Source: a virus (Duplodnaviria > Heunggongvirae > Uroviricota > Caudoviricetes). Taken from it: 23,895 bases of DNA. The stretch lies in the IMG/VR virus record IMGVR_UViG_2667527698_000003; one strand, given 5' to 3'. Shown piece by piece: positions 1,374-22,537 of the stretch (positions are counted from its first letter, which is position 1; each line of letters begins with the position of its first letter). The position numbers were made by a program, and so were the translations under genes. Below the pieces are notes generated by a model. The model saw nothing but the letters and a program-made list of their open reading frames with translations, was not told the DNA's origin and did no database searches.

Positions 1374-1839
1374 GGTTGAATAGCTCCTTGATACGAGAGC
1401 GTCGCTTATCGCGATCTCCCTTATCAGGTGTCACGTCTTCAACTTGCGACTGCTCTTTGAGGCCCAAATCACGGGCGATGATGTTAGCGTTGAGAAGGTC
1501 AGCGGCTGCGCCAGAGAATTTCTGGTCGTAGATGATGTCTTCCGCTCGTGATGTGACGTCAGAAAAACCTTCCATTGACCGGAAGGTTCCCCATGTTTGC
1601 CTGGTGATATCAAGGAAGGTACACAATCCTGAAATAGTCATGGCTCGCATCTTAGGGACATTAGCCTTAATTATTTCTCCCTGATATGAAAATACCTTAC
1701 CCTCCCATAGCGGGTTATCATCAGCCCACTCGAAGTATTCACAACAAGCAGCCCACAGCGCCTCAGGCGATTCGAATTTAGGGTTTCGCCCATGACTACT
1801 GCGGGCCTCCCAAAATCGGTTGCCCTTTGGTGCTGCCAT
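1351..1839 (-). CDS. Terminase small subunit (P22 gp3-like)
   Basis: ORF 1351..1845; product [38 protein letters not shown]... recalled as P22 gp3; start taken at second ATG (1839). Confidence 0.8.
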
Positions 1840-1862
1840 ATTCATCTCACTTAATCGTTATT

Positions 1863-2042
1863 TCAGGTTAAGGACTCTTTCGCGCCTTCAATCAGTGACT
1901 GCTTCAGCAATTCGAGTGTACCAATCGCCTCGCATAAACTGATTTCACCATCATAATCATGAATAACGCTTTCAAGCCGCTCGTATAGCTCTTGAGTAAT
2001 TGGGAATTTCTTCTCCTTACCCAAATTGATTACGCGGCTCAC
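1863..2042 (-). CDS. Hypothetical small protein (59 aa, GTG start)
   Basis: Open frame between the 80-aa ORF and terS, GGAG 6 nt upstream of GTG; below ORF-track length cutoff. Confidence 0.3.
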   Translation of the reverse strand: MSRVINLGKEKKFPITQELYERLESVIHDYDGEISLCEAIGTLELLKQSLIEGAKESLT

Positions 2043-2043
2043 A

Positions 2044-2286
2044 TCATGCTCCGGTAGTAAACAGGTCTAACGCTTCCTTCGATTTACGCACCGCTTCGAT
2101 AGTTCGGGTCGTGATATCTGAATTAGCGCCACCTGACTGGAAGTGAATTTTGAATAGCTCAAGCTTCAGCTCGTCAGTGCCAATGAACTGAAATGCTTCT
2201 TCTGCGGCTGCGTTCTGGTTCATGACCAGTTTGTAAATCTCTAACTGGAATTTCTGTTCTTCAGTCATGGGAATAATCTCTGCCAT
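2044..2286 (-). CDS. Hypothetical protein (80 aa)
   Basis: ORF track; GGAG 6 nt upstream of ATG; same orientation as late operon. Confidence 0.5.
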   Translation of the reverse strand: MAEIIPMTEEQKFQLEIYKLVMNQNAAAEEAFQFIGTDELKLELFKIHFQSGGANSDITTRTIEAVRKSKEALDLFTTGA

Positions 2287-2534
2287 TGTTGGCTCCGTTT
2301 ATCCGTTAAAAGGGATATCAGTTAAGTTATCCCGTGTAGGGTATAAGCCATTGTCGAGACCACTCATTGAATGGTCTCTGCAATAACCGATGTCTTTCCA
2401 TCAGTCCGCCACCACAAAGAATCTTTTTTTGCCATAAGGCAGGAGGTTCATCTTTCAGTGGCTGCCAGTGTTATTTCCCCACTTACTGGCTTGGGTTGTT
2501 TCGCTGTACTGCCGTTAATTAGTGAGTCCGGGGA

Positions 2535-3020
2535 TTATTTCAGTTCGTTACCAGGCATTTCTTTTAGCTCTTTCAAATGACAACGATTGAGGCTAAACCA
2601 CTCCCCGTGCGACCTATAGTTGTAATATTTTTGGTGCAATTTGGTTTCAAGCTCTCTATCGGCCGGAATCTTTGCAATTAGATTTAGCTTCCCACCACTC
2701 ATGCGAGATATCTCTGAAATTCGTTTATTAACCCTGCGACTAAACCCTATTTTTGTTAGCCCACTATCTTCAGCATGCAGAACGTACACATATGATTTTT
2801 GCGAAGCACTGGGTGCGACTTTGTTGTAATTAATCATGTCAAACATAAAGCCTTGCTTTAGCAAAGTTTCAAAAAAGATAGAATTAACACACCCATTCCT
2901 TCTCAGCTCTGCACTTAGCTTGTCAATTTCCTCTATGATGTCGCCAGACCCCTTTCCACTTATAAGAAAATCTTGGTACATGCGACCAATTCTTGAGGTA
3001 ATTTCAACAAAGTTATTCAT
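2535..3020 (-). CDS. T5orf172 / GIY-YIG-like domain protein (161 aa), accessory gene
   Basis: C-terminal half YVYVLHAEDSGLTKIGFSRRVNKRISE...HGEWF matches the GIY-x10-YIG / Arg / Glu pattern; N-terminal ~65 aa unassigned; region AT-rich by eye. Confidence 0.6.
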   Translation of the reverse strand: MNNFVEITSRIGRMYQDFLISGKGSGDIIEEIDKLSAELRRNGCVNSIFFETLLKQGFMFDMINYNKVAPSASQKSYVYVLHAEDSGLTKIGFSRRVNKRISEISRMSGGKLNLIAKIPADRELETKLHQKYYNYRSHGEWFSLNRCHLKELKEMPGNELK

Positions 3021-3163
3021 AGCGTTTACCTTTTAGAAAGATGAGCCTGTTCGCACAGAAAAGCCGCCCCCGAGATGGTCGCCACCATATACGGCAATTC
3101 TCAGGCTCAGCTTTCTGAAAGACTCGGGATTGTTACGCGCTGCGATGCGCGGTTTACTGCAGA

Positions 3164-3191
3164 TGTAAAAAAGCCCCGCAAATGCGAGGCT
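3164..3191 (-). terminator. Rho-independent terminator-like hairpin downstream of Rz
   Basis: Minus-strand agcctcgcatttgcggggct (8-bp stem) followed by TTTTTT. Confidence 0.5.
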
Positions 3192-3364
3192 AAATCCTGG
3201 TATTTGTAATGACTGGCTCTTATCTCAACGCAGCCCCTTACCGCGCGCCAGATGCTCAATATCAAGCATCAGCAATGAGATGTTTAATCTGGATTCACTC
3301 CAGAAGTGATCATCACCCTGTCTACAGAGCCAGATGTGAAGGATGATGAGTAAAATTATCGCTA

Positions 3365-3802
3365 TCATCGAAGGCATTGCGTCCTGATGTACTCCTGCAG
3401 GTAGTTAACCTGCGCGGTTATCCTGTCGATTCCGCTTCGTAGACGGTAATAATTGAGTTCAGCATCTGCTGTAAGTCTTGGGCTTTCTCCATCGCCCATG
3501 CTGCTGGCTCCGGTCGTTGACTTTGCACAGGTGGCGGCGACTTGCAGGCGCTTACGCCCAGCAGAAACATCAGCACGGAGACTTTCGATAGTCGCGTTAG
3601 CATCAGCAAGCTCCTTTGTATATCTGGCATCGAGTTCTGCTACATCACGTTGACGCTTCTGCATGTCAGCAATTGTGGATGCGGCCTTATCGCGCTGCTC
3701 TTTGTAGGCGATGGCGTTATCACGGTAGTGATTAACAGCCCATGACAGGCAAACGATGATGCAGATAACCAGAGCGGAGATAATCGCGGTTACTTTGCTC
3801 AT
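3365..3802 (-). CDS. Rz: Rz i-spanin
   Basis: Product [31 protein letters not shown]... resembles lambda Rz; start overlaps R stop. Confidence 0.85.
3418..3603 (-). CDS. Rz1: Rz1 o-spanin (embedded in +1 frame of Rz)
   Basis: Embedded ORF with lipoprotein-like signal [10 protein letters not shown] and proline-rich stretch; start chosen at MLTRL (61 aa). Confidence 0.6.
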
Positions 3803-4275
3803 ACCTCAATCTCTCTGACCGTTCCGCCTGCCTCTTTGAATTTTGCAATCAGGCTGTCAGCCTTATGCTCGAACTGACCATAACCAGCGCCAGGCAGTGA
3901 AGCCCAGATATTGCTGCAACGGTCGATAGCCTGACGAATATCACCGCGATCAATCATCGGTAAAGCGCCACGCTCTTTAATCTGTTGCAGTGCCACAGCG
4001 TCCTGGCTTTTCGGAGAGAAGTCTTTCAGGCCAAGCTGCTTACGGTAGGCATCCCACCAACGGGAAAGAAGCTGGTAGCGTCCGGCGGCTGTTGATTTGA
4101 GTTTCGGATTTAGCGTGACAAGTTTGCGAGGGTGATCAGAGTAATCAGTGAATAGCTCTCCGCCAACAATGACGTCATAACCATGATTTCTGGTTTTTTG
4201 ACGTCCGTTATCAGTTCCCTCTGACCACGCCAGCATATCGAGGAACGCCTTACGTTGATTATTGATTTCCACCAT
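3799..4275 (-). CDS. R: Endolysin R (lambda-type lytic transglycosylase)
   Basis: 158 aa, [35 protein letters not shown]... near-identical to remembered lambda R. Confidence 0.9.
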
Positions 4276-4582
4276 CTTCTACTCCGGCTTTTTTAGCAGC
4301 GAAGCGTTTGATAAGCGAACCAATCGAGTCAGTACCGATGTAGCCGATAAACACGCTCGTTATATAAGCGAGATTGCTACTTAGTCCGGCGAAGTCGAGA
4401 AGGTCACGAATGAACCAGGCGATAATGGCGCACATCGTTGCGTCGATTACTGTTTTTGTAAACGCACCGCCATTATATCTGCCGCGAAGGTACGCCATTG
4501 CAAACGCAAGGATTGCCCCGATGCCTTGTTCCTTTGCCGCGAGAATGGCGGCTAACAGGTCATTTTTTTCTGGCATCTTCAT
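4259..4582 (-). CDS. S: Holin/antiholin S (dual-start MKM motif)
   Basis: 107 aa, [34 protein letters not shown]... lambda S-like. Confidence 0.9.
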
Positions 4583-4824: not shown

Positions 4825-4900
4825 TGGTGCTGGTTAACGGACTTGAACCGCTACCCATTCGCTTACAAGGCGACTGCTCTACCATTGGAGCTAAACCAGC
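4825..4900 (-). tRNA. Phage tRNA, anticodon UGU (Thr) by manual folding
   Basis: 76-nt cloverleaf on minus strand: 7-bp acceptor GCTGGTT/AACCAGC, D-arm GCTC..GAGC, anticodon loop CTTGTAA, T-loop TTCAAGT, 3' CCA. Confidence 0.6.
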
Positions 4901-4905
4901 ATGTT

Positions 4906-4980
4906 TGGCGGGACAGCGTGGACTCGAACCACGATAAGAAGGTTAACAGCCTTCCGTAATGACCTTTATACGACTGACCC
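4906..4980 (-). tRNA. Phage tRNA, anticodon GUU (Asn) by manual folding
   Basis: 75-nt cloverleaf: anticodon stem GAAGG/CCTTC, loop CTGTTAA, T-arm CGTGG-TTCGAGT-CCACG, 3' CCA; one T-T mismatch in acceptor stem. Confidence 0.6.
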
Positions 4981-5030: not shown

Positions 5031-5066
5031 CCTCTAATTATGGCTAAATGGCTAATTGCATGTCAA
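5031..5066 (-). promoter_or_regulatory. Late promoter pR'-like (sigma70), -35 inside Q 3' end
   Basis: Minus strand TTGACA (5061..5066) - 18 nt - CATAAT (5037..5042), straddling the Q stop codon. Confidence 0.55.
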
Positions 5067-5562
5067 GGCTTTTAACGGCAACATGCTTAACTTTCTCAAC
5101 ACGTTTACGCATTTTGAAAGCATTTTGCATTGGTTGGTACAAAACAAATAACGACGCTTTCAGGATGTCGTCAATTTCATTTCTACAGGTTGCCAGTGAA
5201 GGTTTTCTCCATCCCTCACCACCACGCCCACACATCTTGCGTGGCTTTGCAGTCGCGTGATAGTAGGATGCAATTGCTCGCTTAGATGAACCATGAGCGT
5301 AGTAGCTGAGGAGGATGCCAAAGGCTTTCTTGTCAATGTACATGACGGAATCGACGACCTGAGAAATCAACATTCCATCATCATCATTACACATTGGCCT
5401 TGTCATAACTCTTCCCGGCTCTACGCTCTCCATGAACTTCGCTATTACGCTGCTCATGCGCTTTTCCAGGCGACCTGAGTAAACCCATGCACCCCACAGT
5501 TCAAGCCAGCCATTCAGCCAATCGTGCTGTTCTTTGGTGAGGTTTAGTTCTCTTATGCTCAT
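5044..5562 (-). CDS. Q: Late antiterminator Q (QuuD/phage 82-type)
   Basis: 172 aa; motifs ELWGAW and RPMCNDDDGM resemble DLP12 QuuD family; located upstream of pR'/lysis. Confidence 0.65.
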   Translation of the reverse strand: MSIRELNLTKEQHDWLNGWLELWGAWVYSGRLEKRMSSVIAKFMESVEPGRVMTRPMCNDDDGMLISQVVDSVMYIDKKAFGILLSYYAHGSSKRAIASYYHATAKPRKMCGRGGEGWRKPSLATCRNEIDDILKASLFVLYQPMQNAFKMRKRVEKVKHVAVKSLDMQLAI

Positions 5563-19694: not shown

Positions 19695-20042
19695 GTGGAA
19701 GAAGAAATCTTCACTCGTGAAGAGGCAGCGTCGTATCTGAAGGTAGACAAAGGCACTATCACGCAGTGGATACGAAGTGGACGACTTCAGGCCGCAAAGA
19801 TAAATCCAGATAAACCTAAAAGCCCATATCGCATTTGCAAGTCAGACTGCATTGCGGCGCTTAAGTCTGTGAGACACAATAGCGCGGTGAATGCGGTTGA
19901 TGTGCAGGAGGTTAAAGCATGTCAATCAAACTACGCGGTGGCACGTGGCACTGCGATTTCGTCGCGCCAGATGGATCAAGAGTTAGACGCTCTCTTGAAA
20001 CATCGGACAAAAGGCAAGCGCAAGAACTTCACGATCGTCTGA
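19695..20042 (+). CDS. xis: Excisionase (P22-type, long form)
   Basis: GTG start with GGAG upstream; HTH FTREEAASYLKVDKGTITQWIRSGRL; overlaps int 5' end. Confidence 0.65.
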   Translation: MEEEIFTREEAASYLKVDKGTITQWIRSGRLQAAKINPDKPKSPYRICKSDCIAALKSVRHNSAVNAVDVQEVKACQSNYAVARGTAISSRQMDQELDALLKHRTKGKRKNFTIV

Positions 20043-21079
20043 AAGCAGAAGCGTGGAGAGTAAAAAATCTCGGGGAATCACCGAAAAAGCTATTCAAGGA
20101 AGCCTGCATACGGTGGCTGCGTGAGAAATCGGATAAGAAGTCCATTGATGATGACAAGAGCATTATATCGTTCTGGATGTTGCACTTCAGAGAAGCCATT
20201 CTCTCTGACATAACAACAGAAAAAATAATGGAGGCGGTAGACGGGATGGAAAACCGCCGCCATCGCCTGAACTGGGAGATGAGCCGGGACAGGTGTTTGC
20301 GACTTGGCAATCCGGTGCCGGAGTATAAACCAAAGCTTGCAAGCAAAGGAACGAAGACGAGGCATCTGGCAATACTTCGCGCCATTCTCAATATGGCTGT
20401 TGAATGGGGATGGCTTGACAGGGCACCCAAAATATCAACACCACGCGTTAAGAATGGACGCATCAGATGGCTTACAGAGGAGGAATCGAAGCGCCTGTTT
20501 GCAGAAATTGCTCCTCACTTCTTCCCTGTGGTCATGTTTGCAATCACGACAGGCCTTCGCCGTTCCAACGTTACAGACCTTGAGTGGTCACAGGTCGATC
20601 TGGATAAGAAAATGGCATGGATGCACCCTGATGAAACAAAAGCTGGCAATGCGATCGGAGTTCCTCTTAACGAAACCGCATGCCAGATATTAAGAAAACA
20701 GCAGGGGCTCCATAAGAGATGGGTATTTGTCCACACCAAACCTGCCTACCGAAGCGACGGAACAAAAACAGCAGCGGTAAGGAAGATGAGAACCGACAGC
20801 AACAAGGCATGGAAGGGAGCGTTAAAGCGGGCAGGCATTAGCAACTTCCGCTTCCATGATCTGAGGCATACCTGGGCAAGCTGGCTGGTTCAGTCCGGTG
20901 TCTCTCTTCTTGCACTTAAAGAGATGGGAGGATGGGAAACTCTCGAAATGGTTCAAAGATACGCCCACCTTTCAGCCGGGCATCTCACCGAGCACGCAAG
21001 CAAAATCGATGCGATTATAAGTCGCAATGGCACAAATACGGCACAAGAGGAGAACGTGGTTTACTTAAATGCGAGGTAA
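19919..21079 (+). CDS. int: Tyrosine integrase (P22 Int-like)
   Basis: 386 aa; AGGAGG RBS; C-terminal catalytic region HDLRHTWASW...RYAHL; adjacent to tRNA. Confidence 0.9.
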   Translation: MSIKLRGGTWHCDFVAPDGSRVRRSLETSDKRQAQELHDRLKAEAWRVKNLGESPKKLFKEACIRWLREKSDKKSIDDDKSIISFWMLHFREAILSDITTEKIMEAVDGMENRRHRLNWEMSRDRCLRLGNPVPEYKPKLASKGTKTRHLAILRAILNMAVEWGWLDRAPKISTPRVKNGRIRWLTEEESKRLFAEIAPHFFPVVMFAITTGLRRSNVTDLEWSQVDLDKKMAWMHPDETKAGNAIGVPLNETACQILRKQQGLHKRWVFVHTKPAYRSDGTKTAAVRKMRTDSNKAWKGALKRAGISNFRFHDLRHTWASWLVQSGVSLLALKEMGGWETLEMVQRYAHLSAGHLTEHASKIDAIISRNGTNTAQEENVVYLNAR

Positions 21080-21093
21080 CTTATTGATTTAAA

Positions 21094-21169
21094 TGGTGCC
21101 GATAATAGGAGTCGAACCTACGACCTTCGCATTACGAATGCGCTGCTCTACCAACTGAGCTATATCGGC
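21094..21169 (-). tRNA. thrW: tRNA-Thr (anticodon CGU), host thrW; prophage attachment site overlaps its 3' end
   Basis: Minus-strand 76 nt GCCGATATAGCTCAGTTGGTAGAGCAGCGCATTCGTAATGCGAAGGTCGTAGGTTCGACTCCTATTATCGGCACCA, 15 nt from int stop. Confidence 0.9.
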
Positions 21170-21283
21170 CCTGAAAGGACATGTTCACGAACGTGAATCA
21201 CGGTGGACAAGGTTAAAACTAACCGGGCGATGCGTCAATGGCCTTGTGAATCAAATGGCTACTTTTGCATCACCCGGTTTTAT

Positions 21284-22537
21284 TTACGCACGAATGGTGT
21301 AATCACCAATGCCGATCCACTTGTAAGTGGTCAGTGCTTCCAGCCCCATTGGGCCACGCGCGTGGAGTTTTTGTGTGCTTACCGCCACTTCCGCACCCAG
21401 ACCAAACTGGCCGCCGTCGGTAAAACGCGTAGAGGCGTTAACGTAAACAGCGGACGAATCCACTTCGTTAACAAAACGCTGGGCGTTGCGCATATCGCGG
21501 GTCAGGATCGCATCGGAGTGTTGTGTGCCGTGTTCACGAATATGGGCGATGGCATCGTCAAGATCGCTGACGATTTTGACGTTCAAATCTAATGACAGAA
21601 ACTCATCGTCATACTCTTCGGCTTTAACCGCCACCACCTTCGCAGGGCCTGCCTGCAACTGTGTCAGCGCAGCTGCATCTGCGTGTAATGTCACGCCGCT
21701 TTCCGCCATTTGTTTGCTTAATGCGGGCAGGAAGCTATCGGCGATGTTTTTATTCACCAGCAACGTTTCAACCGTATTACATGTGCTCGGACGCTGAGTT
21801 TTCGCGTTGACGATCACTTTTAATGCTTCAGCGATCTCTGCACTTTCATCAACGTAAATATGGCATACGCCTATACCACCTGTGATCACCGGGATTGTCG
21901 ACTGTTCACGGCACAGTTTATGCAAACCAGCGCCACCACGCGGGATCAGCATGTCGATGTATTTATCCATACGCAGCATTTCACTGACCAGCGCACGGTC
22001 AGGATTATCAATCGCCTGCACGGCACCCGCCGGTAAGCCACAGGATTTCAGGGCGTCCTGAATCACCGCCACCGTTGCCGCGTTAGTGCGACAGGTTTCT
22101 TTACCACCACGCAGGATCACCGCATTACCGGTTTTCAGGCACAGCGAAGCGACATCAACCGTCACGTTCGGGCGCGCTTCATAAATCACGCCAATAACCC
22201 CCAGCGGTACGCGACGACGCTCAAGACGCAGGCCGCTGTCCAGTACGCCGCCATCGATTACCTGCCCCACCGGATCGGCGAGGTTGCACACCTGACGTAC
22301 ATCGTCGGCAATGCCTTTCAGCCGTGCGGGCGTCAGTGCCAGACGGTCAAGCATCGCTTCGCTAAGGCCATTGGCTCGCGCGTCAGCAACATCCTGGGCG
22401 TTAGCGTTGAGGATGATTTCGCTTTGTGCTTCCAGTTCATCGGCGATTTTTTCCAGCACGCGATTTTTTTCGCGGCTGGAGAGTTGCGCTAATTTATACG
22501 AGGCTTGCTTCGCGGCAATGCCCATTTGTTCCAGCAT
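21284..22537 (-). CDS. proA: Gamma-glutamyl phosphate reductase
   Basis: 417 aa ORF with typical ProA sequence. Confidence 0.95.

Follow-up and report, generated by a model that had tools for sequence, protein, structure and literature searches.

The gene for a GIY-YIG-type nuclease that lies between the lysis and packaging genes of the prophage studied here is a precise cassette with junctions at its start codon and at its last codons, and it represents one allele of a cassette slot rather than a simple insertion. As an object, the gene is not new and carries an annotation (RefSeq "GIY-YIG nuclease family protein", WP_001058931-type), and its protein is 100% identical to the products of three annotated phage genes, namely epsilon34 gp68, g341c gp64 and the homologue in phage NM-3. 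The 2008 epsilon34 genome paper does not discuss gp68 (PMC2629481), and a literature search with the protein accessions and with PDC-S57 found no functional study. Our additions are modest and consist of a link to the HkbL protein family, the exact borders of the cassette, a census of the slot, and evidence of a recent spread.

The window, i.e. the whole stretch of 23,895 nt that was analysed, represents the left part of a prophage that is P22-like (Lederbergvirus-type) and has the late operon on its minus strand. The following features are of relevance:

5044-5562, late operon: Q antiterminator, followed by two tRNAs
4259-4582, late operon: holin, located after the two tRNAs
3799-4275, late operon: endolysin
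3365-3802, late operon: Rz/Rz1
3225..3377, minus strand: 50-aa ORF that overlaps the end of Rz, homologue of epsilon34 gp67 and Sf6 gp65, with a hydrophobic N-terminus
3165..3191, minus strand: rho-independent terminator, consisting of the stem-loop AGCCTCGCATTTGCGGGGCT and a subsequent T-run
3021..3164, minus strand: conserved 5' flank or leader, common to different slot alleles, at the end of which are an AAGG (ribosome-binding site) and the ATG
2535..3020, minus strand: GIY-YIG-type nuclease gene, 161 aa, ATG start
2823..3020, minus strand: N-terminal domain, aa 1-66, a predicted acidic three-helix bundle with homology to HkbL/p61
2535..2795, minus strand: C-terminal domain, aa 76-161, T5orf172/MUG113, predicted GIY-YIG fold, basic
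2287..2534, minus strand: 3' flank of the slot, a conserved non-coding spacer of 248 bp
2044..2286, minus strand: DUF2560 gene (P22 orf80 / HK620 hkbM; Pfam E=1.1e-43)
1863-2042: 59-aa hkbN-like ORF between the DUF2560 gene and terS
1351-1845: P22-type small terminase gene (terS)
19919-21079: integrase, abutting tRNA-Thr(cgt), with a ProA-like ORF next to it

This arrangement of integrase, tRNA-Thr(cgt) and ProA-like ORF suggests that the prophage ends at thrW. The nin region of the same phage encodes the nucleases RusA and YbcO. An earlier note on this DNA had placed a 161-aa protein between Rz and terS. The ORF is present at 2535..3020 on the minus strand, and an AAGG can be read in the sequence 9 nt upstream of its ATG. 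The interval was thus named correctly, but the gene does not fill it alone, as the DUF2560 gene and the 59-aa ORF lie on the terS side and the 50-aa ORF lies on the Rz side. In Salmonella phage epsilon34, the gene has the same position after Rz/gp67 and a terminator, and the DNA is 98.6% identical over window positions 2046-3450. The two phages differ further downstream, where epsilon34 encodes gp70 and gp71 ("head decoration protein") 3' of the DUF2560 gene, whereas the window has the 59-aa ORF and terS.

The borders of the exchanged segment follow from pairwise comparisons. Versus HK620 and HK106, the replaced segment comprises 2525-3015, versus E212 it comprises 2516-3013, and homology to all three resumes at window positions 3014-3016. 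The flanks of the slot, which are 3016-3220 (including the terminator) and 2300-2524, are present at 3598 places in 2599 of 5426 complete E. coli genomes, i.e. in about half of the genomes, and they are also found in lambdoid phages, P22-like and HK97-like ones among them. The slot can hold the following alleles:

Rha, with the domains Phage_pRha and ORF11CD3
a protein with KilA-N and ORF11CD3, followed by HkbL
a protein with KilA-N and P63C, followed by p61
a second GIY-YIG lineage, represented by HK106 gp64, about 32% identical
DUF551
no gene (empty slot), as in L006 and many E. coli genomes

In the empty slot, window positions 2298-2365 are joined to 3168-3400 via 28 nt, and the terminator runs straight into 2365-2298. 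P22 Rha, HK620 HkbK and the HK97 gp73-type KilA-N proteins are encoded at exactly the same cassette position within the same flanks, but they consist of unrelated domains (Phage_pRha or KilA-N, combined with ORF11CD3 or P63C) and have no sequence similarity to the nuclease protein. The upstream border of the slot is formed by the 50-aa ORF at 3225..3377, which retains 92-100% amino acid identity beside several Rz types. On the other side, the spacer 2287..2534 has 95-99% identity among P22-like and HK97-like phages and holds a remnant of ST64T orf118, and the adjoining DUF2560 gene, a conserved neighbour in P22-like copies, is already outside the exchangeable cassette. The nuclease allele was found in 58 of the 5426 complete E. 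coli genomes, always on the chromosome and in single copy, even though at least some of these 58 carriers possess a second slot that is occupied by a different allele. Relative to the 2599 slot-bearing genomes, 56-58 carry this allele, and 5 of 254 phage records have the gene, always directly after Rz/orf50. It therefore has the accessory, non-core character that had been assumed in the earlier note.

That note had also spoken of a classic moron, and this label fits in part. In the sense of Hendrix and Juhala, the gene is indeed an extra gene that is missing from relatives, and its GC content deviates (38.9% versus about 48%). The AT-richness relative to the flanking genes (45-52% GC) that had been noticed is real; the GC content amounts to 51.6% in Rz, 49.7% in terS and 45.3% in the DUF2560 gene, and to 47.6% over the whole window. 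The label does not fit with respect to a simple insertion, to a promoter of its own upstream, and to a terminator of its own downstream. In the region 1800-3500, a strict-consensus scan, which weak promoters may escape, detected 0 sigma-70-like promoters, where 3.2 would be expected. Of minus-strand terminators with a proper T-run, there is one upstream of the gene and none downstream; the one upstream corresponds to the terminator-like hairpin seen before, was recovered by a terminator scan at 3191..3172 on the minus strand plus T-run, and a rho-independent terminator is annotated at the equivalent place in epsilon34. As no promoter was detected for the gene itself and a terminator is positioned upstream, it is probably expressed only during lytic growth, by read-through of Q-modified RNA polymerase, as would be expected from the biology of lambdoid late operons. 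An Rfam search of the region gave no family and only sub-threshold, terminator-driven chance matches. The idea of an IHF site, suggested by the IHF regulation of P22 rha, was discarded, as the leader 3021..3164 contains no WATCAANNNNTTR match.

The assignment of the C-terminal domain to the T5orf172/GIY-YIG-like nucleases, which had been proposed from a sequence signature, is borne out by profile, predicted fold and conserved catalytic positions. Residues 77-154 match two Pfam models above their cutoffs, MUG113 with 50.1 bits (E=4.2e-13; cutoff 22.3) and T5orf172 with 39.2 bits (E=1.1e-9; cutoff 20), and the canonical GIY-YIG model PF01541 gave no match at E<=0.1. The full-length AF2 model (pLDDT 85.5) predicts helices at residues 3-21, 25-41 and 47-73 and thereafter a beta-beta-alpha-beta-alpha unit, and the best structural matches of the modelled C-terminal domain are GIY-YIG nucleases, with structure-specific SLX1 nucleases at the top. 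A PDB sequence profile search returned UvrC and UPF0213 GIY-YIG domains at E 0.2-0.4, which is not significant. The signature that had been quoted is present as V78-Y79-V80, K90-I91-G92, R100, E125, H129 and G139-E140-W141-F142, and Y79, K90-I91-G92, R100, E125, L128-H129 and E140-W141-F142 do not vary in an alignment of 17 full-length relatives with identities as low as 24%. The second motif, K90-I91-G92 instead of the canonical YIG, is thus an invariant property of the family. In I-TevI and the free-standing T4 Seg-type endonucleases, this motif has a Tyr where the present protein has a Lys, and the present protein is about half their size and has neither their linker nor their minor-groove or HTH DNA-binding region. 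The spacings, 11 residues from the Tyr to the second motif and 8 residues from the Gly to the Arg, match those of I-TevI Y6/Y17/R27. By spacing and by comparison with the literature, Y79, R100 and E125 are assigned as the catalytic Tyr, the catalytic Arg and the metal-binding Glu. Motif positions of T5orf172 domains are known to deviate from the canonical GIY-YIG positions (bioRxiv 10.1101/2020.11.28.402263; PMC8263062), and cleavage by Odn, a T5orf172 nuclease, depends on the equivalent Glu (PMC8263062). As the catalytic positions are invariant and the equivalent Glu is needed in Odn, the protein is likely an active DNA endonuclease. In a whole-protein PDB sequence search, designed pentatricopeptide-repeat proteins were matched with E values down to 3e-6, but this is a summed artefact, with about 5 bits per repeat, per-domain E values of 200-300, and one helical hairpin aligned to eight identical repeats.

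The N-terminal part, which was left unassigned in the earlier note (about 65 aa), turned out to have relatives. Residues 1-60 are homologous to HkbL of phage HK620, a free-standing protein of 85 aa (E=9e-11), and also match HK97 p61, with E values for the two ranging from 9e-11 to 4e-9. HkbL and p61 belong to a family of 83-87-aa proteins that are common in Enterobacteriaceae prophages. Both are encoded in the same slot as the nuclease, but 3' of a KilA-N gene and as separate proteins that have a basic tail in place of the nuclease domain. A remnant of a nuclease domain was looked for 3' of hkbL in HK620 and HK97, and none was found. Pfam has no match for the domain, and its structure prediction (pLDDT 85) gave three helices for which structure searches returned generic helical-bundle matches only. 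The domain is acidic (pI 4.85) and the C-terminal domain is basic (pI 9.6). No DNA-binding module was recognised in the protein, which has only two cysteines and whose extra domain is acidic, and a scan for the Bro network's DNA-binding domains (Bro-N, KilA-N, Phage_pRha, ANT, ORF11CD3 and others) yielded only the MUG113/T5orf172 matches. From sequence, a role of the N-terminal domain in protein contact or oligomerisation is more likely than one in DNA binding. The link between HkbL and the N-terminal domain of a nuclease is a small new lead.

The combination of both domains is rare. In a profile search of 1.84 billion representatives, the C-terminal domain was found in 17,251 proteins and the full two-domain layout in a handful. 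HK106 gp64 and related alleles of HK97-like, lambda-like and P22-like prophages have the same two-domain architecture with 162 aa and likewise occupy this slot between its conserved flanks, also behind a terminator after Rz. With only about 32% protein identity, they constitute an old lineage of their own within the family. Scans of viral contigs for distant two-domain relatives (P0015, P0017) gave only the two lineages already known. Relatives with about 60% identity and the HK106 lineage with about 32% identity have the same position after Rz, although the lysis and packaging genes around them are quite different. As relatives at both levels of divergence hold the post-Rz position, the family is an old tenant of the slot.

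The present allele, in turn, is very uniform. When divergence from the window was pooled over 34 further loci with this allele (from IMG/VR, phages and E. coli; the loci are non-independent, as several represent the same phage), the gene differed by 0.38%, the adjoining spacers by 1.9-2.1%, the DUF2560 gene by 3.9%, terS by 5.8% and Rz by 7.1%. Three loci retain more than 99% identity in the gene next to an upstream spacer with only 83-87%. In E. coli, 56 of the 58 copies are at least 99% identical, compared to 80-100% identity within two KilA-N alleles of the same slot. At the protein level (at least 99% identity), the same allele is associated with two lysozyme/endolysin types and with at least three types each of Rz and terS, in phages of E. 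coli as well as Salmonella. This uniformity across backgrounds, together with the low GC content, indicates at the sequence level that the gene is a recent arrival that would have spread by recombination at its borders. The 35 copies contain 19 polymorphic sites, 14 of which are synonymous and five non-synonymous (one of them nonsense), and the gene therefore is functional and under purifying selection. These counts and the identity to the three annotated phage proteins also speak against a spurious ORF.

Is this pattern the footprint of homing? The divergence rises outward from 0.38% via about 2% to 4-7%, in a manner reminiscent of co-conversion, but hkbL forms a similar island, and the loci are non-independent. 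In a control set of 79 loci with the HK620-type KilA-N allele, which were picked by allele similarity and are likewise non-independent, hkbK had diverged by 3.6-6.0% from HK620 and the adjoining hkbL by only 0.52%. As hkbL encodes no nuclease and shows a similar island of identity, the pattern alone is not readable as homing. A sporadic presence at a fixed site, as expected for a homing gene, is found (56-58 of 2599 genomes; 5 of 254 phage records), but the separate DNA-binding or recognition module that would also be expected is not recognisable. Moreover, the flanks are common to carriers and non-carriers, and a homing site therefore does not simply lie in the flanks.

What could be the role of such a nuclease? 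The earlier note had named a homing-type endonuclease and a nuclease-based exclusion gene as options. We tentatively favour, as a possible rather than a probable reading, an endonuclease of the lytic phase that has a restricted target and would serve in the competition between lambdoid genomes, by a homing-like spread or by the exclusion of rival markers. Production of the protein would be confined to lytic growth, in which Q-modified RNA polymerase passes the terminator. Its acidic HkbL-like helical domain would probably provide a protein-protein contact or an oligomerisation surface, and the basic T5orf172/MUG113 domain, with its predicted GIY-YIG fold and its intact Tyr-Arg-Glu set, would probably cleave DNA. 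The target would be restricted (sequence- or structure-specific), and the enzyme would be produced at the time when the phage packages its own DNA. In a shared cell, rivals with another slot allele would be cut, which would favour the inheritance of the own allele. The cassette travels alone, without an immunity partner, and we counted this in favour of restricted-target competition.

Such a function would have parallels among characterised relatives. T5orf172 genes show the behaviour of homing endonucleases, mark recombination boundaries, and are near terminase genes in 35% of the neighbourhoods (PMC10448857). The ICP1/T5-like T5orf172 homing endonucleases and ICP1 Odn (Gp88) belong to the same subfamily and have the catalytic Arg and Glu (PMC10448857, PMC8263062), and, like these homing endonucleases, the present gene is located near terminase genes and at recombination boundaries (PMC10448857). 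The differences are considerable. Zn fingers of the CapR/DUF723/DUF4397 types are carried by 87% of the described T5orf172 homing endonucleases (PMC10448857), and the ICP1/T5-like proteins have such Zn-finger or RepA_N DNA-binding domains and belong to virulent phages, whereas the present protein has the HkbL-like domain and belongs to a Q-dependent late operon of temperate phages. One may go further and propose that HkbL-like plus T5orf172 proteins represent a lambdoid-specific class of competition or homing nucleases that are targeted by docking of the N-terminal domain, with HkbL as an adaptor-only version and the slot as a locus of inter-phage conflict, but we regard this extension as highly speculative and improbable. 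Candidate docking partners would be a DNA-binding protein of the Bro network, or the packaging or replication machinery of a rival phage.

Other roles than competition have to be weighed against these considerations. The company in the slot would agree with a DNA-binding or regulatory protein of the Bro-network type that does not cleave, as the alternative alleles combine Phage_pRha with ORF11CD3, or KilA-N with ORF11CD3 or P63C, and as the KilA-N alleles precede HkbL, the homologue of the N-terminal domain of the nuclease protein. In other proteins, T5orf172 domains are reportedly found together with Bro-N and KilA-N, and the same preprint states that this co-occurrence is the context of their first description, with predicted DNA binding (bioRxiv 10.1101/2020.11.28.402263). 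P22 Rha is a product of the late operon that harms lytic growth in IHF-deficient hosts (PMC4936722, citing Henthorn and Friedman). Nevertheless, a pure binder would not need to retain the Tyr, Arg and Glu that are invariant down to 24% identity, and the nuclease protein and the Rha/KilA-N proteins themselves have no domain in common, which makes a regulator unlikely. If cleavage is accepted, the enzyme could act in the late DNA metabolism of its own phage, by degrading host DNA or by trimming or resolving intermediates before packaging. The late-operon place upstream of the terminase genes would suit such an accessory nuclease, as would the structural similarity to the structure-specific SLX1 nucleases and the retention of the Rz-terS position across three diverged lineages. 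We consider this quite unlikely, because the gene is dispensable, with a non-nuclease allele or an empty slot in most lambdoid phages, and because the phage already has the two nucleases of its nin region.

The variable accessory position in a prophage and the deviating GC content could also bring to mind a defence or superinfection-exclusion nuclease that is expressed in the lysogen and cuts incoming phage DNA. PADLOC gave a match to the candidate family PDC-S57 (E=4e-4, 18 bits), but this match is weak, covers only positions 4-82 of the 212 profile positions and concerns an unvalidated candidate family, and NCBIfam had no match. The location in the late operon 3' of a terminator, where no promoter consensus was found, does not fit expression in the lysogen, and neither a partner gene in the cassette nor a DNA methyltransferase in the nin region accompanies the nuclease. 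Such a defence function is thus very unlikely. A restriction-modification-like pairing with a phage methyltransferase had been considered separately and was dismissed, as the nin region in the window encodes none.

With these results, which are of modest practical value, a gene that was annotated by its family name alone is recognised as an accessory nuclease gene that is functional and under purifying selection. The T5orf172 homing cases described so far are mostly from lytic phages. If it is true that the nuclease promotes its own spread or excludes rivals, homing of the T5orf172 type would extend to temperate lambdoid phages, and there would be a mechanism for the mosaicism at the boundary of lysis and packaging genes. 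This boundary contains a second, independent cassette point at position 2388, where some relatives carry a gene of the Gp49 family.

The N-terminal domain of the 161-aa T5orf172/GIY-YIG-type protein (window 2823-3020) has a free-standing homologue in phage HK620 (locus L095), where it is encoded by hkbL at 2995-3241, the gene that follows the KilA-N gene hkbK. In the 79 loci from IMG/VR whose KilA-N allele is of the HK620 type, hkbL forms an island of nucleotide identity with only 0.52% divergence, whereas the adjoining hkbK diverges by 3.6-6.0%, and the flanks around the two genes are mosaic. HkbL and its HK97 homologue p61 match at 96% across the first 54 residues; beyond these, the C-terminal remainders of the two proteins (85 and 77 aa in total, respectively) do not align.

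The 161-aa gene itself is interrupted in one of its 35 copies, a variant found among the 34 loci compared with the window, by a TGG-to-TGA mutation that turns W141 into a stop codon (codon 141, window 2598-2600). This codon lies within the invariant GEWF motif, and the copy in question is inactivated.

On its two sides, the 161-aa gene is accompanied by the following features:

2287-2534, non-coding spacer of 248 bp
3225-3377, minus strand, 50-aa ORF (epsilon34 gp67/Sf6 gp65), hydrophobic at its N-terminus and in overlap with the end of Rz

The spacer is conserved at 95-99% identity among P22-like phages, HK97, HK022, HK106 and mEp phages, and neither an annotated gene nor an Rfam match was found in it. 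It contains a hairpin near 2348-2372, which marks the border of the junction seen when the cassette slot behind Rz is empty, and a second precise cassette point at window position 2388 (between 2387 and 2389). Exactly at this point, E. coli EC6, like several IMG/VR loci, has a 126-aa Gp49-family gene (N4 gp49/Sf6 gp66). The window has no such gene and retains just a short remnant, which in the Salmonella phage epsilon34 is annotated as the N-terminus of ST64T orf118. The 50-aa ORF is conserved at 92-100% identity beside quite different Rz types, and it is absent in one compared locus, L029.

Two IMG/VR contigs, L043 (IMGVR_UViG_2700989167_000002) and L041, are 99.6-100% identical to the window in all compared segments from the holin gene to terS, and represent in essence the same prophage as the window.

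The window further carries tRNA genes at two places, the second of them next to the integrase gene:

4825-4980, minus strand, tRNA-Thr(tgt) and tRNA-Asn(gtt), flanked by the genes for the Q antiterminator and the holin
19919-21079, plus strand, integrase, adjoining tRNA-Thr(cgt)
21094-21169, minus strand, tRNA-Thr(cgt)

The same tRNA-Thr(tgt) and tRNA-Asn(gtt) pair occurs in E. coli 13KWH46. After tRNA-Thr(cgt) follows an ORF of the aldehyde dehydrogenase family that resembles ProA, and the prophage appears to end in the region 19919-22537, at its attachment site. The site at tRNA-Thr(cgt) is probably thrW, where P22-like phages integrate, and the neighbouring ORF is probably proA.
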